Below, in pieces: positions 769-20,850 of a DNA stretch of 26,725 nt. Each line of letters starts with the position of its first letter. Within the stretch, counting starts at the first letter, position 1. The position numbers and the translations under genes were made by a program. A model generated the notes under the pieces. The model saw only the letters and a program-made list of their open reading frames with translations. It did no database searches and had not been told where the DNA came from. Origin of the DNA: Bacillota bacterium (GTDB lineage: Bacteria > Bacillota > Dethiobacteria > DTU022). Location: NCBI GenBank assembly GCA_041309745.1, contig JBFYYZ010000186.1:1-26725 (forward strand). Direction: 5' to 3'.

Positions 769-2703
769 GTGAGCGCTCCGGTTCCGGATTACAGCAATAA
801 TGCACTCTTTGATATTCTGAAAGTGACGACACCTTTTTCGTTTTTAGAAGATCAGGCCATCTCTGCGATCATTAATGAAGCCACCGTGAAAAGTTATGCC
901 AAGGACAGCTTTATTTTTCGCGAAGGAGATCCTTCCAAACAAACCCTTTTTTTTATCCTGGCCGGCAAGGCCAAGGCGCTGGCCAGGCTGGGCAGCGAAG
1001 AGTCTGTTACTACCATCAGGGGCAAAGGGGAAATTTTCGGAGTTACTGTGCTGCTTTCCGATGAAGCTTATCCCATATCAATGATCGCCGCTGATGATTT
1101 AACCTGCCTGCTAATCAGTCAGAAAGCCTTTCAGCAAACCCTGGCGGGCAACAGTCACTTTGCCGACTTCTTTACCAAGAACCTTGCTGCCAGATTAAAA
1201 GAACTTTATTTGACTTTTGCCGACAGCCGGTATGAAGAACAATTTTTTCAGGGCCAGAGTTTAAGGCGGCGGGTAGCCGATATTGCCCAGGACCAGGTTG
1301 TTACCTGTCTGCCGATGGACAAAATAAGCGATGTTGCCAGAAAGATGAATAAAAACAGGGTCAGCTCTGTGGTTGTTATGGCTTCCAACGGAAAGCCGTT
1401 AGGGATTATCACAGAAAAAGACCTGGTCCACAAAGTTCTCTCCACTGATAAACCAGACTTAAACCGGAGGGCACATGAAATAATGTCCGATAATCTGATT
1501 ACCGTTAAGCCCGATGATTTTAGTTACCGGGCTCTTTTGATGATGACCAAGTACAATATTAAACATATTGTCATTACTGACGATAACGACGTTTTACATG
1601 GCATAATCACTGTCAAAGATTTAATCCGCAATCGTAACAGTGGAGCGCTTTCGATTATCAGGCAGATTGAATATCAGGACAGCTTTGAGGGATTAGCGGG
1701 TTTAATCCGGGAAATAGACCAGGTTCAGCAGGCTCTGTTGACCGAACGGGCTTTTGCCTCTGAAATCTGTTCCCTGCTCTCTGAATTATATGATCGGATC
1801 ACACGGCGGGTAATCCAAATTGCCGAAGCAGAAATGATCAATGAAGGTTGGGGGAAACCTCCGGTGGATTACTGCTTCATCACGATGGGCAGCGCCGGGC
1901 GTAAAGAGCAGTATGGGCGAACAGATCAGGATCACGGCATTATTTATGCCGATCTAAACAACGAAGAACAGGAAAAAACTGCTGAATATTTTCTAGCCCT
2001 CGGCAAAAAAATAGTATCCGGCCTGGAAATGTGCGGTTTCAGGCGCTGCAGCGGCTTTGTGATGGCTGACAATCCCCAGTGGTGCCAGCCCCTCTCTGAT
2101 TGGAAAAACATGCTAAGCAGTTGGACAGCTGCCCTTGATCCGAAGGATATCCGCAACATGACAATTTTTCTCGACTATCGCTACCTCTACGGAGAATCCG
2201 CTCTTTGTGAACAACTAAAAGATTACAGCACCCGGCTTTTTAAAGACTCGAAGCACGCCCTCCTTTTCATGGCCGAAGACGATCTGAAACACCGGGTGCC
2301 CCTTAATATTTTTGGCAACATCATCACCCGCAGAACCAGCAGTAAAAAACGAAAAGTGAACTTAAAAGCTGAAGTTATGGTGCACCTGGTTGATTGTATT
2401 CGCCTTTTTGCCCTGCGTGAGGGAATCCGGGAAACAAACAGCTTCGACCGAATCCACAGTTTAAAGACCAGGGGAGTATTCAAGGCCGATGACGCTGAGT
2501 TTATCGAGGCGGCTTTTGAGTCTTTGTTGATGTTTAGAATCCGTAATTCTTTAGACCGTCTGCGGGAAGGGCACGACCCTGATAATGTTATCGATCTGAG
2601 CCAACTCAATAAAAAAGAACGCACTCTGCTTAAGGAAGCAATGTTGGTAGTAAATCGTCTGCAAACCCTTACTGATCATTCCTTTCATGTCCATAAAGCC
2701 TGA
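769..2703 (+). CDS. cNMP-binding + CBS pair + DUF294 nucleotidyltransferase (GlnD/GlnE-like) + DUF294_C protein
   Basis: 644 aa, GTG start. N-terminal Crp-like barrel (IFREGD...GEIFG), two CBS repeats (SSVVVM...GIITEKDL; KHIVIT...GIITVKDL), NTase motif MGSAGRKEQ...DQDHG, then SGLEMCGF..C.G.VMA.NP.W and DYRYLYG, and a C-terminal VNLK...IRLFAL..G region. Confidence 0.9.
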   Translation: MSAPVPDYSNNALFDILKVTTPFSFLEDQAISAIINEATVKSYAKDSFIFREGDPSKQTLFFILAGKAKALARLGSEESVTTIRGKGEIFGVTVLLSDEAYPISMIAADDLTCLLISQKAFQQTLAGNSHFADFFTKNLAARLKELYLTFADSRYEEQFFQGQSLRRRVADIAQDQVVTCLPMDKISDVARKMNKNRVSSVVVMASNGKPLGIITEKDLVHKVLSTDKPDLNRRAHEIMSDNLITVKPDDFSYRALLMMTKYNIKHIVITDDNDVLHGIITVKDLIRNRNSGALSIIRQIEYQDSFEGLAGLIREIDQVQQALLTERAFASEICSLLSELYDRITRRVIQIAEAEMINEGWGKPPVDYCFITMGSAGRKEQYGRTDQDHGIIYADLNNEEQEKTAEYFLALGKKIVSGLEMCGFRRCSGFVMADNPQWCQPLSDWKNMLSSWTAALDPKDIRNMTIFLDYRYLYGESALCEQLKDYSTRLFKDSKHALLFMAEDDLKHRVPLNIFGNIITRRTSSKKRKVNLKAEVMVHLVDCIRLFALREGIRETNSFDRIHSLKTRGVFKADDAEFIEAAFESLLMFRIRNSLDRLREGHDPDNVIDLSQLNKKERTLLKEAMLVVNRLQTLTDHSFHVHKA

Positions 2704-2722
2704 AGAAGGCGAGGAGATACGG

Positions 2723-3547
2723 ATGAAAAACAATAATATTCATTATGAACCGGATTACAACCTGCTGAACCGCAAAGCGAAAAAAAACGAAACGATGCCC
2801 CGGACCAGCAGTAGTGAAAGACTGATCAACCGCCTGTTAACCGGAGCAAAACAACCGGAACCGATCGCTAATGATCCTGCCATTTTTGAAAAGCTTTCAG
2901 AGGAAATATCGACGATCAAAGCGAACATCGATTGGGAACAAAACCTCATGGATGCATCGTATGTTGTTTTTGACACCGAGACCACCGGTCTGCACCCTTA
3001 CATGGACGACGAAATCATGGCCATCGGTGCGTTGACGATCAAAAACGCTAAAATATTCACGGATGATAATTTTTATCGCCTTGTCAACCCCAGGCGCCCT
3101 ATCCCACCGGTTGCCAGGCGCATCACCGGCATTGATGATGGCATGGTAAAAGATGAGCCGCAAATTATCCCTGCGCTGCTCGATTTTTTAAGGTTTTGCG
3201 GGCCGCGGATTCTCATTGCTCACAACGCGCCCTTTGATCTGGCCTTCATCAATATCAAGATCAGTGAATCCACCGGCAGGCGTTTTGTTAATCCGGTGAT
3301 TGATACCGTGCTGCTCACTTCAGCACTTCATTATTCAATAGGAGATTATTCGCTGGAGAACCTTTCAACTGTTTTCAAACTGGATTTAAGCGGCAGGCAT
3401 CACGCCCTTGGCGATGCTCGCATTGCAGCAGAGCTGTTCTTAAAGATTCTTCCCGAGTTGGCCAACCGCGGCATCACCAACCTCCACCAGTTAGCTGCTC
3501 TTTTCAGCGATTCAGACCTGACCAAAGGCTATCCGCTGATCTTTTAA
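2723..3547 (+). CDS. Stand-alone DEDDh 3'-5' exonuclease-fold protein (DnaQ/PolC-exo-like)
   Basis: ExoI VVFDTETTG, ExoII HNAPFD, ExoIII HHALGDA. SD GAGGAG at 2711-2716 supports the ATG at 2723 rather than 2687. 274 aa. Confidence 0.88.
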   Translation: MKNNNIHYEPDYNLLNRKAKKNETMPRTSSSERLINRLLTGAKQPEPIANDPAIFEKLSEEISTIKANIDWEQNLMDASYVVFDTETTGLHPYMDDEIMAIGALTIKNAKIFTDDNFYRLVNPRRPIPPVARRITGIDDGMVKDEPQIIPALLDFLRFCGPRILIAHNAPFDLAFINIKISESTGRRFVNPVIDTVLLTSALHYSIGDYSLENLSTVFKLDLSGRHHALGDARIAAELFLKILPELANRGITNLHQLAALFSDSDLTKGYPLIF

Positions 3548-4920
3548 AGTTTTAAAGACTCGATGGCCTTTTCGATCTGCACCTTCACCGCTGCGGGAGC
3601 TGTCCCGCCCCGACTGCTCCTGGCTTCAACCACCCGGGCCGGATCAAATAGCTCGTCAATTCTTTCGGCCAGGGTTGGGTGAAAACTGATCCGCTCCTCC
3701 TTGTTCAGTTCCCGCAGGCGCTTATTGTTACGGGCCGCGTAAGCAATCATTTCCCCGACAATGTGATGGGCATCCCTGAAAGCAAGCCCTTTCGAAGCCA
3801 GGTAATCGGCAATATCTGTCGCACATAGATAATCGTCATCAACCGCTGCTGACAGCCGTTCTTTTTTTATAACCATGGTTTGCAGCATCCCTGCAAAGAG
3901 GGGCAAGATCACTTTCAGGTGATCGATGACATCAAAAAGGCCTTCTTTATCTTCCTGCATATCCTTGTTGTAAGCCAGAGGGAGGCCTTTCATCATGGTT
4001 AACATTGCCAGCAGGGCCCCGTAAACCCGGCCTGTTTTGCCGCGAATGAGTTCAGCAACATCAGGGTTCTTCTTCTGTGGCATCATGCTACTGCCGGTAG
4101 TGTAAGCATCGTCAAGCTCAATGAAACCAAATTCAGCGCTGCTCCAGAGGATCAATTCCTCGCAGAATCTGCTTAAATGCATGATCAGAATTGATGCGAA
4201 AGCTAAAAAATCGATCAGGTAATCGCGATCGCTTACCGCATCAATGCTGTTTTCGTAGAGTGAACCAAAGCCAAGCTTTTCGGCAACAAACTCCCGATCA
4301 ATCGGAAAACCAGTTCCGGCCAAGGCGCCGGCGCCTAGCGGCATCAGATCGGTGCCTTTTGCTACCCCTTTAATCCGTTCACGGTCACGCCCAAACATCC
4401 AGAAATAAGCAAGCAGGTGGTGGGATAATAAAAGTGGTTGTGCTCGCTGCAGGTGGGTGTACCCGGGAATGATCAAATCTTCATTTTCCCGGGCCAGTTC
4501 AATTATTGTTACCTGCAGTTCTTTAAGCCGCTGATCGATGAGGGCAAGCTCTTCACGCAGGTAAAGGTGCATATCAAGCGCTACCTGGTCGTTGCGACTG
4601 CGTCCGGTGTGCAGTTTTCCTCCTGCCGGGCCGATTTTTTCGATTAGCCGTTTTTCAATATTCATGTGAATATCTTCAAAGGCAAGATCTTCCGGGAAAG
4701 TGCCGGCTTCGATTTCCGCTGCTATTTCTTTGAGTCCCCCGACAATAGCTGCCGCTTCGGCCACAGTAATAATGCCCTGCGCGGCGAGCATTTCAGCATG
4801 GACAATACTACCCTTAATGTCGAAAAGAGCCAGGCGCCGATCAAAAAGCAGTGATGCAGTAAACTCTAATACCCGATCGTCCAGTTCTTTTTCAAAACGG
4901 CCCTGCCATGGTTTTTTCAG
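3544..4920 (-). CDS. argH: Argininosuccinate lyase
   Basis: [12 protein letters not shown] signature, [20 protein letters not shown]. Frame is open upstream of the track start through ...KKPWQGRF to a CTG at 4920-4918, giving 458 aa. Confidence 0.96.
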
Positions 4921-6149
4921 CTTCCTGTCGCCTCCCTGCTCTTTTCTTTCTTCAGCCTCATCATGCCCTTAATAGTCAGCGGCAGCCCGTAGAGATTGAT
5001 AAAACCCTGGGCGTCTTTCTGTTCAAACAGCTCATCTTGTTCAAAAGTTACCATACCGTGATGATAAAGAGTATGCGCTGATTCGCGACTGCTGACCGCT
5101 ATATTGCCCTTGTAGAGCTTCATGCCAATTGTCCCGGTAACCGGTTCCTGGGTTTTTTGAATAAAACCGTCCAGCGCTTCACGCAGCGGTGTAAACCAAA
5201 GCCCATAGTAAATCATTTCTGCGTATTTAAGAGCTATCCCTTCCTTGTAATGGTAGGTTTCGCGATCAAGAGTATAATGTTCCAGCTCCCGGTGGGCAAA
5301 AGCAATCAGGGTCCCGCCGGGAGTCTCGTAGATACCCCGGGATTTCATCCCCAGGAGGCGGTTTTCAACCATATCGACCCGGCCGACACCATGCCTGCCG
5401 GCAATGGTATTAAGCTCCTCAACCAGCTGCACCGGTCCCAGAGCTTTACCATTAACGGCAACGGGAATACCCTGTTCAAATGTTATGGCAACTTCTTCGG
5501 GCTGGTCGGGTGCATCCATCGGATCTACAGTCAATTTGAACATATCTTTCTCCGGTTCCCGATCAGGATCTTCCAGGATCCCGCCTTCAAAGCTGATATG
5601 CCAGATATTGCGGTCGATACTATATGGCTTTTCAGCCGTAACCGGGATCGGTATGCCATGACTGCAGGCATAGTTCATGCAATCGGTCCGTGACTGAAGC
5701 TCCCACTCACGCCAGGGCGCAACTATTTTTAAGTACGGGTTAAGGGCCTTTACGGCAAATTCAAACCGCACCTGGTCATTGCCCTTGCCGGTAGCCCCGT
5801 GCGCTACGGTTGTAGCCCCTACTTTTTCAGCTATTTCAACCAGCCTCTTGCCGATTAGCGGCCTGGCAATAGCGGTGCCGAGCAGGTATTTACCTTCGTA
5901 TACCGCTCCCGACTGAACCATCGGGAAGATGTAGTCTTTAACCAGTTCTTCCCTGATGTCTTCGATAAAGATCTGCGAGGCACCGGTTTTGATCGCCTTC
6001 TCTTCTAAGCCTTCCAGCTCGCTGTCGCCCTGACCGACGTTAGCCGTCATTGCCACGATTTCGTAATTGTATTTTTCCTGCAGCCACTTAACAATAACTG
6101 ATGTATCCAGCCCTCCCGAGTAAGCAAGGACCACTTTTTCTTTAGCCAT
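4917..6149 (-). CDS. argG: Argininosuccinate synthase
   Basis: [49 protein letters not shown] at 6149 follows SD AGGAGG. 410 aa. Confidence 0.97.
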
Positions 6150-6193
6150 TAATAATTTCCTCCTTTTAATTAAACAGTTTGCTCTGCTTTCGT

Positions 6194-7378
6194 TTATGCT
6201 GATAAAATAGTACTTAAAATTGCCAGCCCTTGCTGTAACTCTTCCTGACTGACTGTTAAGGGGGGTAAAAACCTTAATGTTGTGTCCCCGATGGCATTGA
6301 TTAACAAACCTGCGGCCATGCACTTTTCCTGGATTTCTTTGGCCAGCGGCTGATGCAGCTCCAGGGCGCAGATTAAACCAAGGCCCCGAAATTCTTTGAT
6401 TAAAGCAGGATACTTATCTTGCAGCGCTTCACAATCTTTTTTAAATCTCTCGCCCTTGGCTTGTACCTCTGCTAAAAAACCTGGTGCATAAAGGATTTTT
6501 AAAACCGCCAGGGCAGCAGCGCAGACAACCGGGTTGCCACCAAAAGTAGATGCATGATCGCCCGGTTGAAATAGATCGGCATAGGGCTGAGCAACAATTA
6601 AAACGCCCAGTGGCAAACCCCCGCCAAGCCCTTTGGCAGCTGTTATCAGGTCGGGGCTGACTGCCCAATTTTCAGATGCCCATAGTTTTCCGGTTCTGCC
6701 CATGCCACACTGCACTTCATCAAAAATCAGCAGCAGACCCTCGCGATCACATAACTCACGCAAGCCTTTGATAAATGATGGCTCGGCCGGGTATATTCCG
6801 CCTTCTCCCTGGATCGGCTCAATGATAATCGCAGCGGTTTGATCGTCAACCAACTTTTCAAATGAAGCCAGATCATTAAATGTTGCGTACGAGAATCCTT
6901 CCACCAGCGGTTCAAATGCTTTACGGTATTTTACCTGCCCCGTTGCCGTCAGGGCCGCGAAAGTTCTGCCGTGAAAAGAACGCTCCGCGGCAATTACTTT
7001 GTAGCGACCGGGCTGAAGTTTTCTAACCAGCTTAAAAGCCGCTTCGTTTGCTTCCGCACCGCTGTTGGCAAAGAACACCTTACCGGAATTCCCGGTTTTC
7101 CCGATCAGCTCTGAAGCCAACTCCGCCTGAGGTCCGGTGTAATAAAGATTAGAAGTGTGGCTCAGCAAAGATACCTGCCGGCAAACTGCCTCGACAACCC
7201 GGGGGTGACAGTGGCCGAGAACATTAACCGCCAGCCCCCCTAACAGATCAAGGTATTTCTGGCCCTGGTCATCCCAGACATAGGAACCTTCGCCCCTAAC
7301 CAAACAGGGAGTGAATCCGGGCTGCCTGTTGTAAGTGTTAATGATAAATTCTTTTTCTAACTCCTGAATGTTTTTCAT
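6194..7378 (-). CDS. argD: Acetylornithine aminotransferase (class III PLP)
   Basis: [54 protein letters not shown]; arg operon context. Confidence 0.93.
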
Positions 7379-7404
7379 TTGTTAACTCCCTTATCTCTTT
7401 TCAA

Positions 7405-8307
7405 TCAACGAGTCACCATAGTGCCAATTCCGGCATCGGTAAAGATTTCAAGTAAAAGTGAGTGCGAAACCCTGCCGTCTATAATGTGGGTCCGCCTCAC
7501 TCCGCCATCCAAAGCCATCAGACATGACTCAACCTTCGGGATCATCCCTCCTTTAATGTTTCTGTTTACAATCAGATCGCGGATCTTACGCCTCGTTATC
7601 GATGATATAAATTCTCTGGTTTGGTCTTTCTCCTGGTAAACCCCTTCAACATCAGTAAGAATAATCAGCTTTTCTGCTTTTAAGGCAACCGCCAGTTCTC
7701 CCGCTACATGATCGGCATTAATATTTAAGCTTTCTCCGTTAAACCCCGCACCGATGGATGATATCACCGGAATATAGCCATTGTCACTTATCGTATGCAC
7801 GATCGCGGGATTAACCTGAAAAATTTCACCCACCCGCCCAAGGTCGGCCCTGGATCCATCAGTTGTACCTTCCATCAGGGGACCTTCTTTTCGTCTGGCC
7901 TGAATTAGCTCGGCATCCCGGCCACTTAAGCCTACTGCCTTGCCACCCTGCCGGTTAAAAAGGCTGACCAGATGCTGGTTCACCTTGCCCATCAGGACCA
8001 TCTCGACAATTTCCATCGTTTCGTCATCGGTCACCCGCAAGCCATCGACAAACTGAGGTTCTTTGCCCAGCCTCAGCATGACCTCGTTTACCTCTTTACC
8101 TCCGCCATGCACCAGAATCGGTTTAACCCCGATAAATTTAAGCAAAATCAGATCAACAATTACCGATTCCATTAAATCGGGGTTTACCATGGCCTGCCCG
8201 CCATACTTTACTACAAAGTATTTTCCCGTATAGGCGCGCATATAGGGAAGAGCTTCAACCAGCACTTCAGCTTTCTGGATACTCAGCAGCGCTTCCTGAT
8301 TCAACAT
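7405..8307 (-). CDS. argB: Acetylglutamate kinase (with N-terminal helix typical of Arg-inhibited forms)
   Basis: VVKYGG, LVHGGG, DGLRVTD, NINAD, GGMIPKV, HIIDGR, GIGT. Confidence 0.96.
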   Translation of the reverse strand: MLNQEALLSIQKAEVLVEALPYMRAYTGKYFVVKYGGQAMVNPDLMESVIVDLILLKFIGVKPILVHGGGKEVNEVMLRLGKEPQFVDGLRVTDDETMEIVEMVLMGKVNQHLVSLFNRQGGKAVGLSGRDAELIQARRKEGPLMEGTTDGSRADLGRVGEIFQVNPAIVHTISDNGYIPVISSIGAGFNGESLNINADHVAGELAVALKAEKLIILTDVEGVYQEKDQTREFISSITRRKIRDLIVNRNIKGGMIPKVESCLMALDGGVRRTHIIDGRVSHSLLLEIFTDAGIGTMVTR

Positions 8308-8320
8308 GACACCTGCTCTC

Positions 8321-9544
8321 TTATGTGCGATAATTACTGTTTATGTTGATATATTCATGGCTCAGGTCAGTTCCCCAGGCAGTTATCTCAGCCGGCCCCT
8401 GGTTCAGATTGACGAGAATATCGAGATCATGCCCCGATAGGTACAATTTCATTTTGCTTTCGCTGAAAGGGACAGCCCCGCCATTTCTGGCAACCTGGTA
8501 CGGGCCGATAAAGATATCTACCTTTTCCGGATCGAAATCAACTCCGGCATAACCGAGAGCCGCTATAATCCGGCCCCAGTTGGCATCCTCTCCGTAAAAA
8601 GCGGTTTTTACCAACGGTGAATTCAGGATGCTACGGGCCATAATCCTTGCACCTTTTGCATCCATTGCCCCGCTGATGTCTAGCTTGAGCAACTTGGTGA
8701 TGCCCTCACCATCCCCAACAATCTGCAGGGCCAGATCAAGGCAAACCCGGTTCAGGGCCTCTTTGAAATAGGTTAAAACAGCGCTTTCTTTGTCAATTTC
8801 AATCTTCGAAGCGCCATTAGCCAGCAGCAGAGCTGTATCGTTGGTTGATGTGTCACCGTCAACTGTGATGGCATTAAAAGAGGCATCAGCTGCCGCAGTA
8901 AAGATCTCCTGCAGCAGGGTGTGCTCAATCCTGGCATCGGTTGTCAGAAAGGCCAGCATCGTTGCCATGTTCGGGCAGATCATCCCCGAGCCTTTAGCCA
9001 TTCCACCGATCATAAATTCACCGCCGCCCGGTACTACAACCCGGCAGGCAGAACGCTTAACTGTTGTGTCAGTGGTCATTATTGCTGATGCTGCATCCAG
9101 ATCATCGCTGTCTGCCCTTGTCAGCAAGCCGGAAATCCTCTCAATACCGGTGACAATTTTATCCATCGGTAACTGCTCACCGATTACTCCGGTCGAACAA
9201 ACCATCACCTGGCTACTTTTTACGCCAAAACTGGCAGCAGTCTTTTCAGCCATCAGGACGGCATCCTGCCTGCCCTGTTCACCGGTGCAGGCATTGGCAT
9301 TGCCGCTGTTAACCACCACTGCCCGGATCGGGTTTAAGAGGTGCGCCCGGCAGAGATGCACCGGGGCGGCCTGCACAATGTTTTTTGTAAAAACGCCCGC
9401 CGCAACAGCATCATGCTCACTGTAGATCACGGTCAGATCCTTGCTGCCATTCCTGATACCGCAGGACATTCCCGCTGTTACATAACCTTTTGCGGCAGTA
9501 ATCCCTTTATCCTCAATCTTGCTGATACTGTAATCATTCTTCAT
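8321..9544 (-). CDS. argJ: Ornithine acetyltransferase / N-acetylglutamate synthase
   Basis: NSGNANACTG, STGVIG, IMTTDT, KGSGMICPNMATML (autoproteolytic Thr), VDGDTSTNDT, DGEG.TK, DANWGRI. Confidence 0.97.
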   Translation of the reverse strand: MKNDYSISKIEDKGITAAKGYVTAGMSCGIRNGSKDLTVIYSEHDAVAAGVFTKNIVQAAPVHLCRAHLLNPIRAVVVNSGNANACTGEQGRQDAVLMAEKTAASFGVKSSQVMVCSTGVIGEQLPMDKIVTGIERISGLLTRADSDDLDAASAIMTTDTTVKRSACRVVVPGGGEFMIGGMAKGSGMICPNMATMLAFLTTDARIEHTLLQEIFTAAADASFNAITVDGDTSTNDTALLLANGASKIEIDKESAVLTYFKEALNRVCLDLALQIVGDGEGITKLLKLDISGAMDAKGARIMARSILNSPLVKTAFYGEDANWGRIIAALGYAGVDFDPEKVDIFIGPYQVARNGGAVPFSESKMKLYLSGHDLDILVNLNQGPAEITAWGTDLSHEYININSNYRT

Positions 9545-9563
9545 TAGTGCACTCTCCTGTATG

Positions 9564-10598
9564 CTAGATAGCCAGCTGCTCTAATCCGGTTTCTTCCGGT
9601 AGGCCGAAGCTGATGTTCATGTTTTGAATTGCCTGGCCGGAAGCACCCTTCACCAGGTTATCAATGGCCGACATGATCACCAGTAGCCCGGTTCGTCGAT
9701 CTAACCTCAATGCCAGATCACAAAAATTTGTGCCCCTCACAAAACGGGTTTCAGGTAAACTTTTTTGATCATAAATCCGGATAAAATAGCTTTCCCTGTA
9801 GTAGTCTGTGTAAAGCGCTGTTATCTCTTCAAGACTTAACTCACCTTGAAGCTGCACATAGATGGTACTGAAAATACCCCTGATCATCGGCACCAGGTGA
9901 GGTGTAAAAGCAATTGTAGTTTTTTTGCCGGTAAGCCGGCCCAACTCCTGTTCTATTTCAGGTGTATGTTGATGAGAAAAAACCCTGTAGGCTTTAAAGT
10001 TTTCCGAGCATTCCGGAAAATGAAAAGGCTGCTTAGGTGCACGGCCAGCCCCTGAAACCCCTGATTTTGAATCAACAATAATCATTTCTAAATGGGCTAA
10101 CCGGTTTGCCAAAAGCGGCGCCAGGCCGAGGATGATCGAAGTGGGATAGCAACCGGGGTTGGCAATTAAATCGGCGCTCTTGATCTCTGCCCGGTAGAGT
10201 TCTGTTAACCCGTAGACAGCTGAAGAGAGCAGTGAAGGGTGCGGGTGCTTAAAATCATACCAACTTTGATAAAGGGCAGGATCTTTTAACCGGTAATCGG
10301 CGCTTAAGTCGATCACCTTTAAACCGCGTTCAAGCAGCGCCGGCACCACTGCTGCAGACTGTCCGTGGGGCAGGGCACAAAAAACCAGCTCGGCTGAGTC
10401 TGGTATGTTTTCAATTTTCAGGGCCTCCAGCTGCAGATTGATCCGCTTCTGAAACTGGGGGTGAACGCTGCTGTAGGGTTCACCGGCACTGCTTTCAGAG
10501 CTGAGAAAAACAAGATCCGCTTCCGGATGACCCTGGATGAGACGGACCAGCTCTGATCCCGTATATCCGGTTGCGCCAACTACTGCTACTTTAATCAT
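9564..10598 (-). CDS. argC: N-acetyl-gamma-glutamyl-phosphate reductase
   Basis: VAVVGATGYTG, IANPGCYPT, SGVSGAGR, AIDNLVKGASGQA. ATG at 10598 is best spaced from SD GGAGG (10610-10606); TTG codons at 10604 and 10601 are alternatives. Confidence 0.96.
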   Translation of the reverse strand: MIKVAVVGATGYTGSELVRLIQGHPEADLVFLSSESSAGEPYSSVHPQFQKRINLQLEALKIENIPDSAELVFCALPHGQSAAVVPALLERGLKVIDLSADYRLKDPALYQSWYDFKHPHPSLLSSAVYGLTELYRAEIKSADLIANPGCYPTSIILGLAPLLANRLAHLEMIIVDSKSGVSGAGRAPKQPFHFPECSENFKAYRVFSHQHTPEIEQELGRLTGKKTTIAFTPHLVPMIRGIFSTIYVQLQGELSLEEITALYTDYYRESYFIRIYDQKSLPETRFVRGTNFCDLALRLDRRTGLLVIMSAIDNLVKGASGQAIQNMNISFGLPEETGLEQLAI

Positions 10599-10610
10599 CA
10601 ACAACCCTCC

Positions 10611-10647
10611 AAATAAAATAACCCCTCATCCTAAAAAGGACGAAGGG
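10611..10647 (-). terminator. T-box attenuator terminator
   Basis: CCCTTCGTCC / GGATGAGGGG stem with a TTTTTA loop and a TTATTTTATTT tail immediately before the argC SD. Confidence 0.85.
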
Positions 10648-10880
10648 CTCGCGGTACCACCTTTATTGATCGGCAAATTATATGCCGAACCACTTAAACC
10701 GTTTTCATGAAAAACGGCCTTGATAACGGTATAAAACCGGGACAGCCTACACACCGGTATAAACCGGCTTCAACCACCACCTCCGGGGTGCGCTTCACCG
10801 CTTGTTTTAAGTCCGGACTTTCACCAACTCCGGCTCGCTGCTACCGCCACAATACGGTTACTCTCCCCATCACGGGCTTT
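10611..10880 (-). ncRNA. T-box riboswitch leader, Arg specifier (CGC)
   Basis: Minus strand reads GTGATGGGGAGAGTA (GA motif/AGTA), AGCGA...GGTGAAA distal loops, specifier loop GAA-G-CGC-A (CGC at 10792-10790), CCGTTA, stem III TCGGCA..TGCCGA, T-box AAGGTGGTACCGCG (GGTGGTACCGCG at 10661-10650), then a terminator. Confidence 0.92.
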
Positions 10881-10885
10881 ATAAT

Positions 10886-10954: not shown

Positions 10955-12496
10955 TTATAGCGGTATATTGCCGTGCTTACGCATCAACCGCTGTTCGCGC
11001 TTGTTCTCAACCATTTCGAGCCCCCGGATCAGGTAAGCCCGTGTCTGGCGAGGATCAATTACCTCATCGATCCAGCCCCGGGCTGCCGCAATGTAGGGGT
11101 TGGCATATTTATCCCGGTACTGCTGGACCAGTTCCTGCCGTTTGGCATCTTGATCTTCAGCCGCCTCCAACTCACGCCGGTTAACAATGTTGACCGCCCC
11201 TTCAGGGCCCATAACTGCAATTTCGGCAGTTGGCCAGGCCAGGCAGAGATCGGCGCCCAGCGAGCGGGAGTTCATGGCAATGTAGGCGCCGCCGTAGGCC
11301 TTTCGCAATATAACAGAAATCTGGGGCACAGTCGCTTCTGAATAAGCATAAAGCACTTTTGCCCCGTGGCGAATAATGCCACCCCATTCCTGTTCTACTC
11401 CGGGCAGGTAACCGGGCACATCAACAAAAGTGATCAGGGGCAGGTTGAAACAGTCGCAAAAGCGAACAAAGCGGGCAATCTTATCGGAAGAGTTTACATC
11501 AAGACACCCGGCTTTGAACATTGGCTGGTTGGCAATCACCCCGACCGGTTTGCCGCCGAGGCGGGCGAAACCGACGACCGCATTCTGGGCATAACCCTCA
11601 TGCACTTCCATCAGATCGCTATTATCGACAACCCTTTTTATTACATCACGCACATCATAAGAACGATTTGGATTGTCCGGCATAATCGTCAACAGCTCTT
11701 CCTGATTTAATTCAGGCTCGCTGAATACAGCCAGCGGTGGATCGTCAACGTTATTGGAGGGCAGAAAACTGAGCAGGCGGCGAATCTGGGCAAAACACTC
11801 TTCCTCCTGATCGGCGTAAAAATGAGCAACGCCACTGGTCTGGTTATGGGTAGCAGCGCCACCCAGTTCCTCGGCAGAGACCTCCTCCCCGGTTACCGCC
11901 TTGATTACCTGCGGTCCGGTAATAAACATATTACCGATCTTACTGACCATAAAAACAAAATCAGTGATCGCCGGAGAATAAACTGCGCCACCGGCACAGG
12001 GGCCCATGATCACCGAAAGCTGGGGGATAACCCCCGAGCATAAAGTGTTGCGGTAAAAGATCGATCCAAAACCGTTAAGCGAATAAACCCCTTCCTGGAT
12101 CCTCGCCCCCCCGGAATCGTTAAGCCCGATAACGGGAGCTCCGTTCTGGGCCGCCAGGTCCAAAACCCGGCAGATCTTGGCTGCATGGACTTCACCGAGC
12201 GAACCGCCGGCAACTGTAAAATCCTGGGCATAAATATAAACGCGGCGACCTTCAATTGTTCCGTAACCGCTAACCACCCCTTCACCGGGATTGGGGTATT
12301 CAAGCGAGCTGGCATCCTCCAAACCGGTCTGGGCAAAGGTGCCAATCTCTACAAAACTGCCCTCATCTAAGAGCTTGTTCAGCCTTTCCCTGGCTGTCAG
12401 CTTGCCTTTGGCATACTGGTCTTCAATTCTTTTTTCGCCGCCACCCGCCATGGTCCGGTTTCTTCGCGCTTCGAGGTGTTCTAGTTTATCTTTCAT
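10955..12496 (-). CDS. Acyl-CoA carboxyltransferase beta subunit (propionyl-CoA carboxylase / methylmalonyl-CoA decarboxylase alpha type)
   Basis: GKLTARER, QDFTVAGGSLG, NDSGGARIQEG, MGPCAGGAVYSPA, DVPGYLPG, RKAYGGAY, KHGNIPL. ATG at 12496 follows SD GGTGAG. The direction of the reaction cannot be read from sequence. Confidence 0.93.
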   Translation of the reverse strand: MKDKLEHLEARRNRTMAGGGEKRIEDQYAKGKLTARERLNKLLDEGSFVEIGTFAQTGLEDASSLEYPNPGEGVVSGYGTIEGRRVYIYAQDFTVAGGSLGEVHAAKICRVLDLAAQNGAPVIGLNDSGGARIQEGVYSLNGFGSIFYRNTLCSGVIPQLSVIMGPCAGGAVYSPAITDFVFMVSKIGNMFITGPQVIKAVTGEEVSAEELGGAATHNQTSGVAHFYADQEEECFAQIRRLLSFLPSNNVDDPPLAVFSEPELNQEELLTIMPDNPNRSYDVRDVIKRVVDNSDLMEVHEGYAQNAVVGFARLGGKPVGVIANQPMFKAGCLDVNSSDKIARFVRFCDCFNLPLITFVDVPGYLPGVEQEWGGIIRHGAKVLYAYSEATVPQISVILRKAYGGAYIAMNSRSLGADLCLAWPTAEIAVMGPEGAVNIVNRRELEAAEDQDAKRQELVQQYRDKYANPYIAAARGWIDEVIDPRQTRAYLIRGLEMVENKREQRLMRKHGNIPL

Positions 12497-12532
12497 AACA
12501 CTCACCGCTTTCTTCACGATTCTTAATACTGG

Positions 12533-12931
12533 TTAACGTTCACAAATCTCTATTAACACCCCGCCTGTTGATTTGGGATGCAAAAAGGCGATCTTTGCCC
12601 CACCTGCTCCGTAGCGTGGTTTTTGATCAATCAGCGCTACTCCCTGCTGCTTCAACTGCTCAAGTTTTTCTTCAATATTTGAGACCCTGAAGGATAAATG
12701 GTGTACGCCGCCGCCTTTTTTTTCAATAAACTTACCGACCGGGCCTTCAGGGTCGGTTGATTCCAATAGCTCAATCTTACTTTCGCCAACCGGTAAAAAA
12801 GCAACTTTAACTTTTTGCTCTTCAACTACCTCTATGCCTTTACAGTTTAGACCCAGTTGATCGCGGTATAGTTTTAGAGCTTCATCAAGACTGGCAACTG
12901 CGATCCCGATATGATCTACCTTCTCAAACAT
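12533..12931 (-). CDS. mce: Methylmalonyl-CoA epimerase (VOC fold)
   Basis: [32 protein letters not shown]; mutase context. Confidence 0.93.
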
Positions 12932-12948
12932 TTATATCCCCCCATCCC

Positions 12949-13350
12949 TTAACTTAATTCAAGTTTGTTCCTGATGAAATTAACAATATCCACTGTTGAT
13001 GAACCGGGTGTAAAAACTTCAGCCACTCCGTGTTCTTTCAGGTAAGCAATATCATCGCGGGGAATAATACCGCCAACAAGAACGATTATATCACTGCTCT
13101 CCTGCTCGCGCAGCATCTCAACCACCGGCGGGATTAATTGCATGTGCGCTCCGGACAAGATGCTTAAACCGATCACCTGGACATCTTCCTGCAGTGCCGT
13201 TTCCACAATTTGTTCCGGTGTCTGTCGCAAACCGGTATAGATAACCTCCATACCGGCGTCCCGCAACGCCTGGGCTACGACCTTCGCCCCGCGATCGTGG
13301 CCATCGAGGCCAATTTTACCGACCAGGACCCGAACCAGTTTATCGGACAT
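12949..13350 (-). CDS. Cobalamin-binding small subunit of a split methylmalonyl-CoA mutase
   Basis: DxHxxG motif in [11 protein letters not shown], plus GLSILSGAH and VGGIIP. ATG at 13350 follows SD GGAGG. Confidence 0.94.
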
Positions 13351-13401
13351 CGTACTACCTCCTTCGCGATTCAAACTGCATTTGCAGTTATCCGCTTCAA
13401 T

Positions 13402-15075
13402 TTAAATCGTGATCTGCTGCTGGTACTCACCAAATACATCACGCAAAACCCCGCAAATTTCACCGAGAGTGGCGTAAGCTTTTACCGCTTCGAATATCGC
13501 GGGCATCAGGTTATCGCTGCCCTGAGCAGCTCGCCTCAGTTCCTGCAGGGTTTCTGCCACTTTGGCCTGGTTACGGCTGAGTCTGACTTCTTTAAGCCGC
13601 TCTACCTGTCTCTGGCTGGTAGCGGGGTCCATTTTTAAAAGATCGATCGGCTGTTCACCGCTGATCGTAAAGCGGTTTACACCAACCACCACCCGCTCCT
13701 CTGATTCGATCTCTTTCTGGTAACGATAAGCGCTGGCCTGAATTTCTTTTTGAATATAGCCTTTTTCAATTGCTTCGACAGCACCGCCGATCTCATCGAT
13801 TTTATCAATATAGCTTAAAATATCGTTTTCAACCTGATCGGTCAGTTTCTCAATGAAATATGATCCGCCCAGCGGATCGACCGTGTCGGTAACCCCGATT
13901 TCATAGCCGATTACCTGCTGGGTGCGCAAAGCCAGCAGCACGGAAGGCTCGCTGGGTAAAGCGAGCGCTTCGTCACGCGAATTGGTATGCAGTGATTGAG
14001 TGCCACCTAATACCGCGCTAAGCGCCTGGTAGGCTACACGCATCAGGTTAACGTCAGGCTGCTGGGCTGTCAGGGTGGAGCCTGCCGTCTGGGTGTGGAA
14101 CCGCAGCATCATCGAGCGCGGGTTTTTGGCTCCAAAACGTTCTTTCATCAGGCGGGCCCAAATCCTTCTGGCCGCCCTGAATTTTGCAATTTCTTCAAAA
14201 AAGTTCGAGTGGGCATTAAAGAAGAAGGATAAACGGGGAGCAAACTGGTCCACTTCCAGCCCCGCGGCTACTGCCGCTTCAACATAGGCAATGGCATTGC
14301 CCAGGGTAAAAGCCACTTCCTGGACCGCCGTGGAACCGGCCTCACGAATGTGATAGCCGCTGATGCTAATCGTATTCCAGTTTGGAATCATTTTGCCGGC
14401 ATAGGCAAAGATGTCAATAATAATGCGCATCGATTCCCGTGGCGGGAAAATGTAGGTGCCCCGGGCAACATATTCCTTTAAAATATCATTCTGGATGGTG
14501 CCGTTGAGCTGTTCCATCGCAATACCCTGTTTTTCGGCCACCGCCATATACATAGCCAGCAATACCACAGCCGGAGAATTGATCGTCATTGAGGTGCTGA
14601 CCTTGTCAAGGGGGATTTGATCCATCAAAATCTCCATATCCGCGAGCGAATCGATCGCCACCCCCACTTTACCCACTTCGCCGCGGGCCAGGGGGTGATC
14701 CGAGTCGTATCCGATCTGGGTCGGTAGATCAAATGCTACACTGAGGCCGGTTTGACCCTGCTCCAGCAGATAGCGAAACCTTTCGTTGGTTTCTTCAGCG
14801 CTGCCAAAGCCCGCGTACTGACGCATGGTCCAGAGGCGCCCGCGGTACATGGTCGGTTGAATCCCCCGTGTATAGGGATACTCACCCGGCCAGTTAAGCT
14901 GTTCTTGGTACTTAAATGATTCCAAATCCAGGGTATCGTAGACCCTTTCGATCTCATAGTCAGAATCAGTCTTGAATGTTTTGCTTTCCGGGTGCTTTTC
15001 CAAAGATTTATTTACTTTTTCACACCAGGCCTCTTTTGCTGCAGCGAGCTCCGTATTATTCTGCTGCTCACTCAT
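13402..15075 (-). CDS. Methylmalonyl-CoA mutase, substrate-binding (TIM barrel) subunit
   Basis: [53 protein letters not shown] at 15075 follows SD AAGGAGG. 557 aa. Confidence 0.95.
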
Positions 15076-15112
15076 TGTTGCTTCAGCCTCCTTTCTGATC
15101 ACCCAAAAATAC

Positions 15113-15979
15113 TTAAACTTTTTCTTTGATAAACCTGACAATTTCATCGGGTAAAGCCGCAACTTTAACCCCGGCTGCGGTAAGCGCTTTTACTTTACCG
15201 TCAAAGGTCCCTTTACCCCTCTCGATAATCGCCCCGGCATGGCCCATTCTTTTGCCCGGAGGAGCGCTTTTCCCAGCCAGGTAAGCGACAACCGGTTTAC
15301 TGATTTCCCTGGCAATAAATTCTGCCGCTTCTTCCTCGGCGCTGCCACCGATTTCTCCAACCAGCACAATCGCTTTCGTTTCCGGATCGGCTTCAAACTG
15401 TTTTAAAACATCGATAAAGTGCAAGCCAACCACCCGGTCTCCGCCAAGGCCGACTACGGTTGTGGTCCCGGTTTGATTGGCCGTCAGATGGCCAACTATT
15501 TCATAACAGAGGGTTCCACTGCGCGAAACCACCCCGACCGGACCGGGAATAAAATACTTGTTAGGCATAATGCCGATTTTGCAGTGACCCGATGAAACAA
15601 GGCCGAAAGTATTGGGGCCAACTACCACAGCATCCTTGGTTTTAGCATAAGCCATGATATCCATCGCATCATGAAGCGGGATATGTTCAGGGATCAGCAC
15701 CACTAGTTTAATACCGGCATCCAAAGCCTCAAGCGCGGCATCGCGGGCAAAGGGCGCAGGAATAAACAGAATCGATGCTTCAGCAGGCTGTTTCTCCATC
15801 GCTTCGAAGACTGTATCAAAAACCGGTACCCCTTCAACACTCTGCCCGCCTTTGCCCGGCGATACTCCTCCGACAATTCCGGTGCCGTACTCCAGCATCT
15901 GCCCGGTATGAAACGAGCCCTGTTTTCCCGTAATGCCCTGAACCAGGACCCGGGTCTGCTTATTTATGTAAATAGCCAT
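15113..15979 (-). CDS. sucD: Succinyl-CoA synthetase alpha subunit
   Basis: [28 protein letters not shown], phospho-His motif KRMGHAG. Confidence 0.93.
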
Positions 15980-16060
15980 TTAAACTACTCCTTTCAAACT
16001 TTTTGTCTGACCAACCTGAATCTTAAAAATTCAGGTAAACCATAATGCGGGAACGAGCGG

Positions 16061-17170
16061 TTAGTAAGCTTTGGCAGATTCCACTGCCTGGCGCACCGCA
16101 TCATCCATGGTGCTGAAAACCCTGATCCCTGCATTTTCTAAGATTGCCTTTCCTTCAGTTTCGTTGGTCCCAACGAGGCGAAATGATACAGGAAGATCAA
16201 ACCCTTTGCTTTCCCTGACCTTGATAAAAGCTTCAGCCACCACATCGCAGCGAGTAATACCGCCAAAAATGTTGATTAAAAGCACCTTGGGGTTGGTGCC
16301 AAGCAGAAGTTCAAGGGCCTGGGAAGTTCTTTCCACATCTGCCCCGCCCCCGAAGTCAAGGAAGTTAGCAGGCTGCCCGCCATAATGCTCCACGATATCA
16401 AGAGTAGCCATGGTAATCCCGGCACCGTTGGCCATGATCGCAATGTTGCCATCGAGTTCAACATAGGCCAGGTCAAGTTCTTCAGCGCGCAGCTCGAGAG
16501 CGGTTTTCTCCTTGATCTTCGGCAGGGTGGGATGGCGGTATAGTGCATCATCGTCGATGGTCACCTTGGCATCGGCCGCCACCAGGCCCTGCGGAGTGAC
16601 CGCCAGGGGGTTAATTTCAGCCAGTTCGGCATCCAGATCCCGGAAAAGCTGATACAGCTTGGGCATAAAAGATAAAAATTCTTTTTGCAGGCTGCCGCTT
16701 ACGCCCAGCCGGCGGCATATTTCACGGACCGTATAATCCTGCATGCCGATAGAAATATCGACAGGCCATTTAATCATCCGCTCTTCCGGAACATCCTCGA
16801 TATCCATTCCGCCGTCTAATGAGGCAAGGACGATCGGTCTTTTGGTTGAACCATCAACGGTCAAAGCCAGGTACAGTTCCTGTTCAATTTGCAGTTTTTC
16901 TTCAACCAGCAGTTTTTCCACGACCAGATCGTTTAGTTTCATTTGCAGAATACGTCCGGCCTCTTCACGGGCCTGATCCGGGCTGGAAGCAAAGGAGATA
17001 CCCCCTGCTTTGCCCCTTTTGCCGCTTAAAACCTGGGATTTAATAACCACATCACCCAGTCCGGCAGCAACCTCAGCAGCTTCTTCTGCGCTAGCCACAA
17101 CTTTACCGCGCGGTACCGGGATGCCATATTCCTTAAAAAGTTCTTTACCAAGATACTCATAAAGTTTCAA
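16061..17170 (-). CDS. sucC: Succinyl-CoA synthetase beta subunit
   Basis: MKLYEY.GK, RGKAGG, EINPL, NGAGITMAT.D, ANFLDFGGG, NIFGGITRCD. TTG start with SD GGAGG. Confidence 0.93.
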   Translation of the reverse strand: MKLYEYLGKELFKEYGIPVPRGKVVASAEEAAEVAAGLGDVVIKSQVLSGKRGKAGGISFASSPDQAREEAGRILQMKLNDLVVEKLLVEEKLQIEQELYLALTVDGSTKRPIVLASLDGGMDIEDVPEERMIKWPVDISIGMQDYTVREICRRLGVSGSLQKEFLSFMPKLYQLFRDLDAELAEINPLAVTPQGLVAADAKVTIDDDALYRHPTLPKIKEKTALELRAEELDLAYVELDGNIAIMANGAGITMATLDIVEHYGGQPANFLDFGGGADVERTSQALELLLGTNPKVLLINIFGGITRCDVVAEAFIKVRESKGFDLPVSFRLVGTNETEGKAILENAGIRVFSTMDDAVRQAVESAKAY

Positions 17171-17199
17171 TTTACTGCCTCCATTCTCCTGATCTTTTG

Positions 17200-19071: not shown

Positions 19072-19158
19072 GCGGGCGTGGCGGAACTGGCAGACGCGCT
19101 GGACTTAGGATCCAGTGGGAGCAATCCTGTGGAGGTTCAAATCCTCTCGCCCGCACCA
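19072..19158 (+). tRNA. tRNA-Leu (anticodon TAG), CCA encoded
   Basis: Acceptor GCGGGCG/CGCCCGC, D arm GCGGAACTGGCAGACGC, anticodon stem CTGGA-CTTAGGA-TCCAG, long variable arm, T loop TTCAAAT, terminal ACCA. Confidence 0.97.
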
Positions 19159-20253: not shown

Positions 20254-20261
20254 ATCAAAAA

Positions 20262-20696
20262 TTAATGCAGTTCTTCATCTCCGCCTTCGCGGGCGATGAT
20301 ATCCTGAAAATCATAAGTAAATTCCACCAGTTTCGCGACCATAAAAATTGGCGACTGGCAGCGAAGCGCCAGGGCAATAGCATCACTGGGCCTGGAATCC
20401 AAGATCAGGGTTTCCCCGTTTTTTTGCAAATAGATTTCAGCATAAAAAGTACTGTCAATAATGTCTGTTATAACAATTTTATTAATCTGCCCTTCCAAAT
20501 TGTCGCATACGGTTTTGAGCAGATCATGGGTCATCGGACGCGGCGGCAGTTCGCCCTGTAAAACTAAGGCAATTGCCTGTGCTTCAAGCGGCCCGATTGA
20601 TATGGGCAGTATTTTTTTCTCTTCATCATCAACTAACAAAACCAGGAAGTTGCCGCCCTGATCAGCCGTAACTGTTTTAACTTCCATCTTGATCAT
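20262..20696 (-). CDS. Bifunctional nuclease family protein (DUF151)
   Basis: LPISIGPLEA, RPMTHDL, FYAEI, DSRPSDAIALALR. SD AAGGAG abuts the ATG at 20705, so the ATG at 20696 is better spaced. Confidence 0.9.
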   Translation of the reverse strand: MIKMEVKTVTADQGGNFLVLLVDDEEKKILPISIGPLEAQAIALVLQGELPPRPMTHDLLKTVCDNLEGQINKIVITDIIDSTFYAEIYLQKNGETLILDSRPSDAIALALRCQSPIFMVAKLVEFTYDFQDIIAREGGDEELH

Positions 20697-20850
20697 TGCC
20701 AACATCTCCTTTTATCTTGTCTGCTATCATTTTAACACAGATTGACGGAGCAAAGAAGAAGTCTCAAATTCGCAATGAATATTATTATTTAAATTTTTAT
20801 GATATTATTTAGTTTAGTAAATATCTAATTGATATTAAAGGAGAATGATC

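Follow-up and report, generated by a model that had tools for sequence, protein, structure and literature searches.

Among described systems, the closest counterparts of the gene pair considered here are found in pseudomonads, where a sensor nucleotidyltransferase (NT) and a DEDDh-type 3'-5' exonuclease are encoded side by side: pp_0354/pp_0353 of Pseudomonas putida, PA3233/PA3232 of P. aeruginosa, and Pflu5625 with its neighbour in P. fluorescens. The pair analysed here occupies positions 769 to 3,547 of a 26,725-nucleotide stretch (the window; contig JBFYYZ010000186.1) from an uncultured lineage of Bacillota with a G+C content of 49%, and is of the same kind as the P. putida and P. aeruginosa pairs. 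MxtR/ErdR directly activates the P. putida KT2440 operon made up of pp_0354 (NT) and pp_0353 (exonuclease) (PMC9927547). Growth on acetate requires neither gene. On pyruvate, a strain deleted for the exonuclease gene shows exactly the same impairment as an actP-I deletion strain and can be complemented in trans, and deletion of the NT gene gives no phenotype there (PMC9927547). On propionate, both deletions reduce growth, as reported in a preprint of September 2026 that speculates on protein modification and calls the function unclear (bioRxiv 10.64898/2026.09.07.749794), and PA3232–PA3235 are co-induced on this carbon source. A member of the pair is also cofit with a DUF4212/SSS transporter in Shewanella and P. 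stutzeri (Price et al., bioRxiv 10.1101/072470), its identity being ambiguous since the designation 'COG2905 (RNase T domain protein)' mixes the names of both partners. The NT family was predicted by Aravind and Koonin in 1999, as cited in PMC5715377, to regulate by nucleotidylation, and nucleotidylation of a protein by the NT has been proposed in PMC5715377 and in the 2026 preprint. A first-pass annotation of the window, made from its letters, had gone further and read the pair as a writer and an eraser of nucleotides; the idea is plausible, and the part that is its own addition is the DEDDh protein as eraser, the nucleotidylation by the NT being already published.

The window pair shares with pp_0354/pp_0353 the gene order, an NT with a cNMP-binding-like domain, two CBS domains and a DUF294 domain followed by an RNase_T-type exonuclease, as well as the link to ActP/SSS symporters, acyl-CoA synthetases and short-chain organic acid metabolism. 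It differs in that its NT domain is only distantly related to the proteobacterial ones (about 25–35% identity), its cNMP-like domain has lost the canonical binding residues, its neighbouring ligase is FadD-type and not Acs, and its promoter is sigma-70-like, in contrast to the MxtR/ErdR (CrbS/CrbR)-activated operon of P. putida, no search for a CrbR/ErdR site or a −24/−12 element having been made here. It is a typical copy of the family, whose sole oddities are the degenerate cNMP-like domain and the sigma-70-type promoter.

All features of the unit lie on the forward strand. Upstream of it is the 3' end (62–613, about the last 183 codons) of a FadD-type, AMP-binding acyl-CoA ligase gene, recognized by the Pfam AMP-binding and AMP-binding_C models and lying outside the transcription unit. 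An intrinsic terminator of this gene (668–700), located by a terminator scan and by folding, consists of a 10-bp hairpin (stem 668–695) and a T-tract, with a folding energy of −16.3 kcal/mol (z = −3.4; none of 200 shuffled sequences folds as well), and is followed directly by the sigma-70-type promoter TTGCCG-17-TATAAT (702–730; 10/12 in the scan). Matches to the promoter consensus are by themselves at chance level (7 found, 6.4 expected). An alignment of six relatives, the least similar at 59% protein identity, shows no variation in TTATTGCC, in the TTGCC of the −35 element or in TATAAT, and the most distant of them (L002) has a hairpin of different sequence at the same position with the same T-tract. 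It is this conservation, and not the consensus match, by which the NT and exonuclease genes are well supported as a transcription unit of their own, as the first-pass annotation had claimed; the ligase end, the terminator, the promoter and the two genes 19 nucleotides apart were all found in place. The NT gene (769–2703, 644 residues, COG2905/DUF294 family by the open reading frame list, Pfam and its homologues) begins with GTG, a start kept in relatives as GTG or ATG, 8 nucleotides behind the purine-rich ribosome-binding site ACGGGG (755–760). The exonuclease gene (2723–3547, 274 residues) begins with ATG 19 nucleotides after the NT stop codon and is preceded by its own ribosome-binding site GAGGAG (2711–2716); an in-frame ATG upstream, at 2687, has no such site, and the homologues align from the start at 2723. 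The convergent argH gene for argininosuccinate lyase (3544–4791, reverse strand), identified from the open reading frame list and from gene calls in relatives (Lyase_1 and ASL_C2), forms the right boundary. Co-transcription was also sought in RNA-seq data: the sequence occurs in DNA metagenomes only and in no RNA run, and three metatranscriptomes of the same study hold 0% of its words. No known RNA element was found in or beside the operon, apart from a single chance-level snoRNA match (E 0.76). Among named proteins, the closest (89% identity) comes from 'Firmicutes bacterium ML8_F2', and more distant relatives occur in Syntrophomonadaceae and Dethiobacter metagenome-assembled genomes.

The NT combines a cNMP-binding-like domain (residues 41–126, 889–1146; Pfam E 1e-14, 54.3 bits), a CBS pair in two stretches (residues 169–290, 1273–1638; E 8e-24, 84.1 bits), the DUF294 catalytic domain with a Pol-beta-type nucleotidyltransferase fold by Foldseek (residues 315–458, 1711–2142; E 1e-43) and the helical DUF294_C domain (residues 497–639, 2257–2685; E 1e-38), which belongs to the KNTase_C clan (PMC3710099). 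The two last-named domains follow each other in this order with scores above the gathering thresholds (PF03445, 148.5 bits against a cut-off of 21; PF10335, 132.8 bits against 22.5), and the cNMP-like and CBS architecture is common to all full-length homologues. The catalytic motif that the first-pass annotation had read behind these sensor domains, GSAGRKEQYGRTDQD at 1888–1932, is an exact match and provides the G-S loop and the metal ligands D386-x-D388; the third catalytic carboxylate is D469 (codon 2173–2175) in an LDYR motif corresponding to the FxDFR of the family, with Asp in 88 of 89 members. The family-invariant residues G374-S375, R378, E380, Q381, D386, D388 and D469 are all present, the catalytic residues are invariant over Bacillota, Nitrospirota, Desulfobacterota, Acidobacteriota and Calditrichia, and the G-S/DxD/D set is intact in 85 of the 89 members. 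In the CBS pair, the ribose-binding signature G-x-x-T/S-x-x-D occurs in both motifs (G212/T215/D218 and G278/T281/D284) and is conserved across the 89 members, G212, T215, D218, G278 and D284 being invariant or nearly so, and an adenosyl compound is the likely ligand. These conserved ribose-binding motifs are the one feature that would point to the energy-charge sensing proposed in the first-pass annotation. The cNMP-like domain, when aligned to the domains of cGMP-dependent protein kinase (PKG), has a degenerate phosphate-binding cassette in which Val92 replaces the Glu and Tyr101 the Arg, thus departing from the canonical F-G-E ... R-[ST]-A, and a Tyr-Pro pair is conserved and typical in the Bacillota clade. 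Canonical cAMP or cGMP binding is therefore unlikely in this lineage, the replacements at Val92 and Tyr101 together with the conserved Tyr-Pro suggesting that the ligand is probably neither of the two.

The AlphaFold model of the NT (mean predicted local-distance difference test score, pLDDT, 85) was searched as a whole with Foldseek. Matches to the cNMP/CBS module apart, its fold is closest to two enzymes that AMPylate proteins, namely the adenylylation domain of Escherichia coli GlnE (3k7d; 382 columns, E 1.4e-7) and Legionella DrrA bound to Rab8a (6yx5; 342 columns, TM 0.66 by target). The designation 'GlnD/GlnE-type' given in the first-pass annotation thus holds for the motif and the fold. 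It does not extend to sequence membership, the Pfam GlnE model scoring 16.3 bits against a cut-off of 24 and a PDB search with the single NT sequence and with a 21-sequence profile yielding no entry for the catalytic part. No solved DUF294 structure was found in the PDB, and Pfam detects neither a second NT domain nor an HD domain in the first gene.

The partner exonuclease contains a single RNase_T/DnaQ-like catalytic domain (residues 81–239, 2963–3439; Pfam E 2e-30, 106.9 bits against a cut-off of 24), and a Pfam scan detected no polymerase or other domain. It carries the Exo I, II and III motifs with D, E, D and H-x4-D; the residues D84, E86, D172, H226 and D231 are invariant in 28 homologues, and all five are intact in 54 of 56 partner exonucleases, in agreement with the first-pass description of a complete DEDDh set with no polymerase domain. 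Together with the counts for the NT, this places both enzymes under selection for catalysis. The AlphaFold model (mean pLDDT 88.5) matches the folds of PolC, DinG, DnaQ and ExoX (E 1e-12 to 1e-10), RNase T and TREX. The protein falls under the cut-offs of every DnaQ, PolC and DinG equivalog (TIGR01406, 98 against 222; PRK05711, 95 against 196; PolC models, 139–156 against 873–1043), and its best NCBIfam model is PRK07740, a 'hypothetical protein'. A 75-residue N-terminal extension bears the motifs Y/F-E-x-D-x3-L-N and I-D-W, conserved in the Bacillota clade. The Tyr of the former motif was considered as a nucleotidylation site and rejected, as the position alternates between Tyr and Phe among homologues.

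The association of the two genes was surveyed by a pattern scan with one genome per GTDB species, which gave more than 595 loci, of which the best 80 were kept; the 74 of these with at least 900 nucleotides downstream of the NT gene serve as the denominator. A DEDDh gene lies within 6 kb of the NT gene in 54 of the 74 loci (73%) and immediately downstream on the same strand in 43 (58%), against a chance adjacency that we estimate at about 1–2%, assuming a few DEDDh genes per genome. The pairing is beyond chance, and the poor co-occurrence across genomes that would have spoken against the writer and eraser idea was not seen. Adjacency is found in at least seven phyla and in either gene order. 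In RefSeq, records of Vibrio, Paracoccus and Hymenobacter hold the pair with gaps of 1 nucleotide or overlaps of 7–8 nucleotides: the Vibrio genes are separated by 1 nucleotide, those of Hymenobacter are in reversed order with an 8-nucleotide overlap, and the Paracoccus record reads acs, DUF4212, SSF, DUF294, a hypothetical gene, REC and a long exonuclease. The NT family as a whole is large, a HMMER search with the catalytic region giving 3,650 clusters at 50% identity, of varied lengths, 1,158 of them at E <= 1e-30.

The constant neighbours of the pair across phyla are transporters and not ligases. A symporter of the SSF family or an Acs-type ligase is present in 35 of the 74 loci, the symporter in 32 and the ligase in 17; a sigma-54 response regulator occurs in 24 and a sensor-kinase cluster in 12 (the scanned representative having a membrane N-terminal region, PAS, HisKA and HATPase), small subunits of DUF4212/DUF485 type recur, and the two-component systems are CrbS/R-like. 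In many loci, the pair stands with transporters or polysaccharide-utilisation genes and with no ligase. To the left of the window, relatives whose NTs are 86–89% identical encode on one strand a PAS kinase with a receiver (REC-only) protein, two PaaK-like ligases and a VC_2705-family sodium:solute symporter with a 106-residue DUF4212-like subunit, and on the opposite strand a 559-residue FadD-type ligase followed by the NT and the exonuclease. The association with ActP-type symporters and acetyl-CoA synthetases that the first-pass annotation had mentioned is thus borne out both in the survey and in the left flank of close relatives. To the right, at 10955–18888 on the reverse strand, the window holds a methylmalonyl-CoA pathway cluster consisting of a carboxyltransferase, a glyoxalase-type epimerase, a B12-binding subunit, methylmalonyl-CoA mutase and the alpha and beta subunits of succinyl-CoA ligase, followed by a PAS-containing sigma-54 activator. 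With the symporter and ligases on its left and this cluster on its right, the locus is devoted to the uptake and activation of organic acids, here of monocarboxylates, and to propionate/succinate metabolism.

Domain scans on ten long members of the DUF294 HMMER set revealed natural fusions. One protein (P0390, found on six contigs) joins cNMP, CBS, DUF294, DUF294_C and RNase_T domains in 877 residues, and P0251 is a partial copy of it. The fusion gene (positions 4335–6968 of locus L089) lies downstream of genes for an SSF symporter and an sCache_2 protein and is followed, two genes further downstream, by an intact stand-alone DEDDh gene (8902–9693). Its exonuclease domain is 34% identical to the window exonuclease. 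This fusion speaks strongly for a physical association in which the two folds work. On hydrolysis as the essential role of the partner it has no bearing either way, as it shows association and not hydrolysis. Four other proteins of 1,064–1,198 residues (P0326, of a cluster named as Phycisphaerae, P0327, P0333 and P0352) carry an N-terminal PHP domain with sCache_2, PAS, CBS and DUF294; this PHP domain is homologous to phosphoesterases of the TrpH/RNase AM type (PDB 3e0f, 7ug9, '5'-3' exoribonuclease', and 2yb1), so that a second, unrelated nuclease-type hydrolase has been recruited to the DUF294 NT. Sensor domains vary on both sides of the pair. Many NTs carry sCache_2 and PAS sensors instead of the cNMP module, and in Desulfobacterales and Paracoccus the partner exonuclease is extended to 660–740 residues (L050, 3653–5863; L065, 3362–5578; L079, 3534–5732; L086, 7890–9869). 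Among the Desulfobacterales copies scanned, the exonucleases of L065 and L079 gave PAS matches in their N-terminal regions, and a stand-alone receiver gene precedes the long exonuclease in L050 and L063 (Desulfobacterales) and in Paracoccus, which suggests that the long exonuclease is itself regulated by signals. Separate sensor inputs on both partners are typical of antagonistic signalling enzymes.

Taken in its most general form, the model to which these observations lead, namely that the NT makes a phosphodiester, the exonuclease removes it and the pair thereby tunes the uptake or activation of organic acids, has in our judgement an even chance of being right. We infer the nature of the transferred group, its acceptor and its removal by the exonuclease; candidates for the acceptor are a protein, a small nucleotide and the 3' end of an RNA. 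We slightly favour a protein, possibly with a short oligo-NMP (nucleoside monophosphate) chain as in HEPN-MNT systems, although, as a subset of the general model, a protein acceptor is held here only tentatively. In the predicted mechanism, the degenerate cNMP-like domain and the adenosyl-ligand-binding CBS pair would gate the GlnE/DrrA-like Pol-beta catalytic domain and the helical substrate-binding domain; the NT would then move an NMP or a short NMP chain from a nucleoside triphosphate to a hydroxyl group of the uptake or activation target, and the modification would down-tune this machinery. The exonuclease would hydrolyse the phosphodiester and free 5'-NMP, whereupon activity returns, the two enzymes forming an antagonistic cycle driven by metabolic signals. 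The specific role that this assigns to the DnaQ-like DEDDh fold, that of a de-nucleotidylase stripping the NMP or trimming the short oligo-NMP chain placed by the DUF294 NT on a carboxylate uptake or activation protein, is possible, and we rate it as well short of probable; the most likely target under such a reading is the SSS symporter or its small subunit. DEDDh enzymes cut between the 5'-phosphate of the 3'-OH terminal nucleotide and the preceding oxygen, and a Tyr/Ser/Thr-O-NMP adduct would be formally analogous. The pyruvate phenotypes of the Pseudomonas mutants fit an antagonistic cycle of addition and removal: if the product of the NT inhibits ActP-dependent uptake, loss of the remover would lock the system off and loss of the writer would have no effect.

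Several observations weigh against this proposal. About one quarter of the NT loci have no exonuclease within 6 kb, which indicates that the NT can work with no adjacent partner; the genes beside such NTs were transporters, sensors and unrelated genes (e.g., TRAP DctM, a Na/Ca exchanger and a Cache-PAS kinase), and no alternative hydrolase was found among them. In the exonuclease domain of the P0390 fusion, only one of the five catalytic residues is left, the others being replaced (D84 by E, E86 by K, D172 by H and H226 by N). All the structural neighbours of the exonuclease act on nucleic acids, and we know of no DEDDh enzyme that cleaves a protein–NMP bond. The likeness of the NT to GlnE and DrrA is at the level of fold only, and the propionate defects of the two Pseudomonas mutants are in the same direction, unlike what simple antagonism would give. 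Finally, the literature, up to the September 2026 preprint, yielded no biochemical study of either pair member and no biochemical data for any member of the family.

The alternative that deserves most attention places the acceptor on RNA: the NT would extend an mRNA, small RNA or tRNA tied to the transporter or ligase genes at its 3' end with non-templated nucleotides, and the exonuclease would trim them, so that the regulated quantity would be RNA stability or expression, comparable to the relation between the CCA-adding enzyme and RNase T or between poly(A) polymerase and exoribonucleases. By sequence and fold, the exonuclease is a canonical nucleic-acid 3'-5' exonuclease, and the PHP domains fused to DUF294 NTs are of the TrpH/RNase AM type, whose relatives are 5'-3' exoribonucleases and oligonucleotide phosphatases; together, these fusions and the exonuclease fold fit an RNA or oligonucleotide substrate equally well. 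The Pseudomonas phenotypes, too, fit equally well, and earlier speculation has run in this direction, Price et al. suggesting that the gene is needed for symporter expression and Henriquez et al. suggesting mRNA degradation. It is nonetheless unlikely in our estimate: the NT is structurally akin to protein AMPylators, unlike poly(A) polymerases and CCA-adding enzymes, and ends in a KNTase_C/GlnE-type domain, not an RNA-binding one, Pfam finds no RNA-binding domain in either protein, and the operon and its surroundings contain no known RNA element. One partner must in any case leave the norm of its subfamily: either RNA is modified by an NT resembling GlnE and DrrA, or a protein adduct is cleaved by an exonuclease resembling DnaQ. 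A short oligo-NMP chain linked to a protein would allow both enzymes to stay near their usual chemistry. The small-nucleotide version, in which the NT makes a free linear or cyclic oligonucleotide as do oligoadenylate synthetase (OAS) and the CD-NTases, the DEDDh protein degrades it in the manner of Orn and a receptor controls transport or metabolism, is less likely still. The sensor domains on both enzymes do resemble the logic of GGDEF/EAL pairs, the characterised relatives of both hydrolase types found with the NT (DEDDh and TrpH-like PHP) degrade short oligonucleotides, and the degenerate exonuclease domain of P0390 could serve as a binding site for the product. However, the neighbourhoods contain no conserved receptor or effector gene, the fold matches listed for the NT are GlnE and DrrA and not cGAS or OAS, no PADLOC or CBASS-type match was obtained, and the cNMP-like domain of this lineage has no canonical nucleotide-binding residues.

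The first-pass annotation had named the neighbouring long-chain acyl-CoA ligase as the candidate target, to be NMPylated by the NT in response to energy charge and de-NMPylated by the DEDDh protein. The ligase gene does stand directly upstream in this lineage, its window fragment being 90% identical to residues 357–559 of the 559-residue ligase of a relative (L082), which in NCBIfam is best matched by long-chain-fatty-acid-CoA ligase models without reaching the cut-off of any. Near the pair, acyl/acetyl-CoA synthetases are found repeatedly, as counted above, and they are known targets of reversible lysine acetylation, and the conserved ribose-binding motifs of the CBS pair would suit a response to energy charge. 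Yet in two relatives with 86% identical NTs, in which NT and exonuclease are intact, the ligase is a pseudogene (L084, 7383–8843; L085, 3–728); the two assemblies share one in-frame stop (GKRKP*STG), and L084 has frameshifts and a deletion as well. A decayed ligase beside an intact pair makes the neighbour a weak candidate for the target, and other observations speak against it: the pair has its own promoter bounded by a terminator, many pair loci have no ligase, the link that persists across phyla is to transporters, and the genetics of Pseudomonas ties the exonuclease to ActP-I and not to Acs, there being no acetate phenotype. We therefore regard this target as improbable. Still less likely, and in our view very much so, is that the partners share no substrate and that the exonuclease is an ordinary enzyme of DNA repair, proofreading or RNA maturation that happens to share an operon with an unrelated NT, as might be supposed from annotation pipelines, which name it the DNA polymerase III epsilon subunit, and from its best sequence matches, the exonuclease domains of PolC and DnaQ. 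Such a separation is at odds with the adjacency over at least seven phyla in either order, the natural fusion, the PAS/REC inputs on partner exonucleases, the scores under every DnaQ, PolC and DinG equivalog cut-off, and the P. putida exonuclease mutant, whose phenotype is carbon-source-specific and matches that of the actP-I mutant. An anti-phage defence function was also considered and was rejected, PADLOC giving generic matches only (the cNMP part of Pycsar/TIR effectors and a generic CRISPR-associated DEDDh model).

The proposed antagonistic cycle of NT and exonuclease is worth comparing with systems in which a nucleotidyl group is added and removed. GlnE is the glutamine synthetase adenylyltransferase and GlnD the PII uridylyltransferase and UMP-removing enzyme; they transfer AMP or UMP to a protein Tyr. 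With them, the window NT shares the Pol-beta-fold core with its G-S loop, D-x-D and third Asp (within D-x-R), a helical domain of the KNTase_C clan at the C-terminus, activity controlled by a sensor and an opposing removing activity encoded alongside, here a candidate remover; the GlnE adenylylation domain is its best structural match. In GlnE and GlnD, however, the same polypeptide also contains the remover, in the form of an HD domain or of a further NT domain, whereas the candidate remover in the window is a separate DEDDh protein, and the window NT has no significant sequence membership in these families. DrrA/SidM of Legionella, the AMPylase of Rab1, is a secreted effector with guanine nucleotide exchange factor and P4M domains, and its counterpart, the de-AMPylase SidD, is a phosphatase of PP2C-like type. 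In the window NT, the region made up of DUF294 and DUF294_C superposes on DrrA in its complex with Rab8a, and writer and eraser are separate proteins in both cases; the Legionella pair has no sensor module, and the fold of its remover is a different one. The CCA-adding enzyme and RNase T provide, to our knowledge, the only well-established antagonism between an NT and a DEDDh enzyme, a Pol-beta-superfamily NT being opposed by a DEDDh exonuclease at the same tRNA 3' end. RNase T is among the fold matches of the window exonuclease, but the genes of that system are not paired in an operon, its enzymes have no sensor domains, and the window NT does not belong to the CCA/poly(A)-polymerase subfamily. 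In HEPN-MNT systems, MNT poly-AMPylates a tyrosine of HEPN, a precedent for a short oligo-AMP chain linked to a protein, and a 3'-5' exonuclease could by analogy trim such a chain. These systems share with the window NT a minimal nucleotidyltransferase and a helical domain of the KNTase_C/HEPN clan. They differ in that the helical domain of the window NT has no HEPN RNase motif (table in PMC3710099), the window pair stands in no toxin or defence context, and HEPN-MNT has no known exonuclease partner.

If the acceptor is a protein, the pair would represent a switch based on reversible nucleotidylation of proteins that forms a class of its own and occurs in thousands of bacteria. The DUF294 NT family is spread over at least seven phyla. 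The partnership with phosphoesterases of nuclease type, encoded beside genes for the transport of acetate, propionate, pyruvate and lactate and for their CoA ligases, points to an undescribed post-transcriptional or post-translational control of organic-acid uptake, and the use of organic acids is important for gut pathogens, soil pseudomonads and anaerobic syntrophs. The present analysis adds testable handles to this question: the NT–exonuclease fusion, the PHP-nuclease fusions and an epistasis prediction derived from the published mutants.

Elsewhere in the window, a tRNA-Leu with anticodon TAG is found at 19072–19158 on the forward strand, and genes for an EamA transporter, a bifunctional-nuclease-domain protein, DegV, MmyB-like and Rrf2 regulators, prephenate dehydrogenase and DAHP synthase occupy 19330–26652; these, the tRNA included, are ordinary housekeeping genes with no visible link to the NT/exonuclease pair. 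Between the pair and the methylmalonyl-CoA cluster lie argH-argG-argD-argB-argJ-argC. The longest open reading frame of argG (4917–6323, reverse strand) has 468 residues with a GTG start and overlaps the end of argD by about 130 nucleotides; since argG is called at 410–411 residues in relatives, the true start in the window is probably further downstream. The genes argD, argB, argJ and argC (6194–10604, reverse strand) lie between argG and the carboxyltransferase gene, whereas in the relatives L081–L084 (NT 86–89% identical) argG leads almost directly to the carboxyltransferase, a difference in gene content of about 4.4 kb. Ahead of argC, a T-box leader was identified at 10633–10882 on the reverse strand (108 bits against a cut-off of 93). 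Placed in register with the Rfam consensus as GAA-G-CGC-A, its specifier is probably CGC (Arg), in which case the arginine biosynthesis operon would be controlled by the charging of tRNA-Arg.

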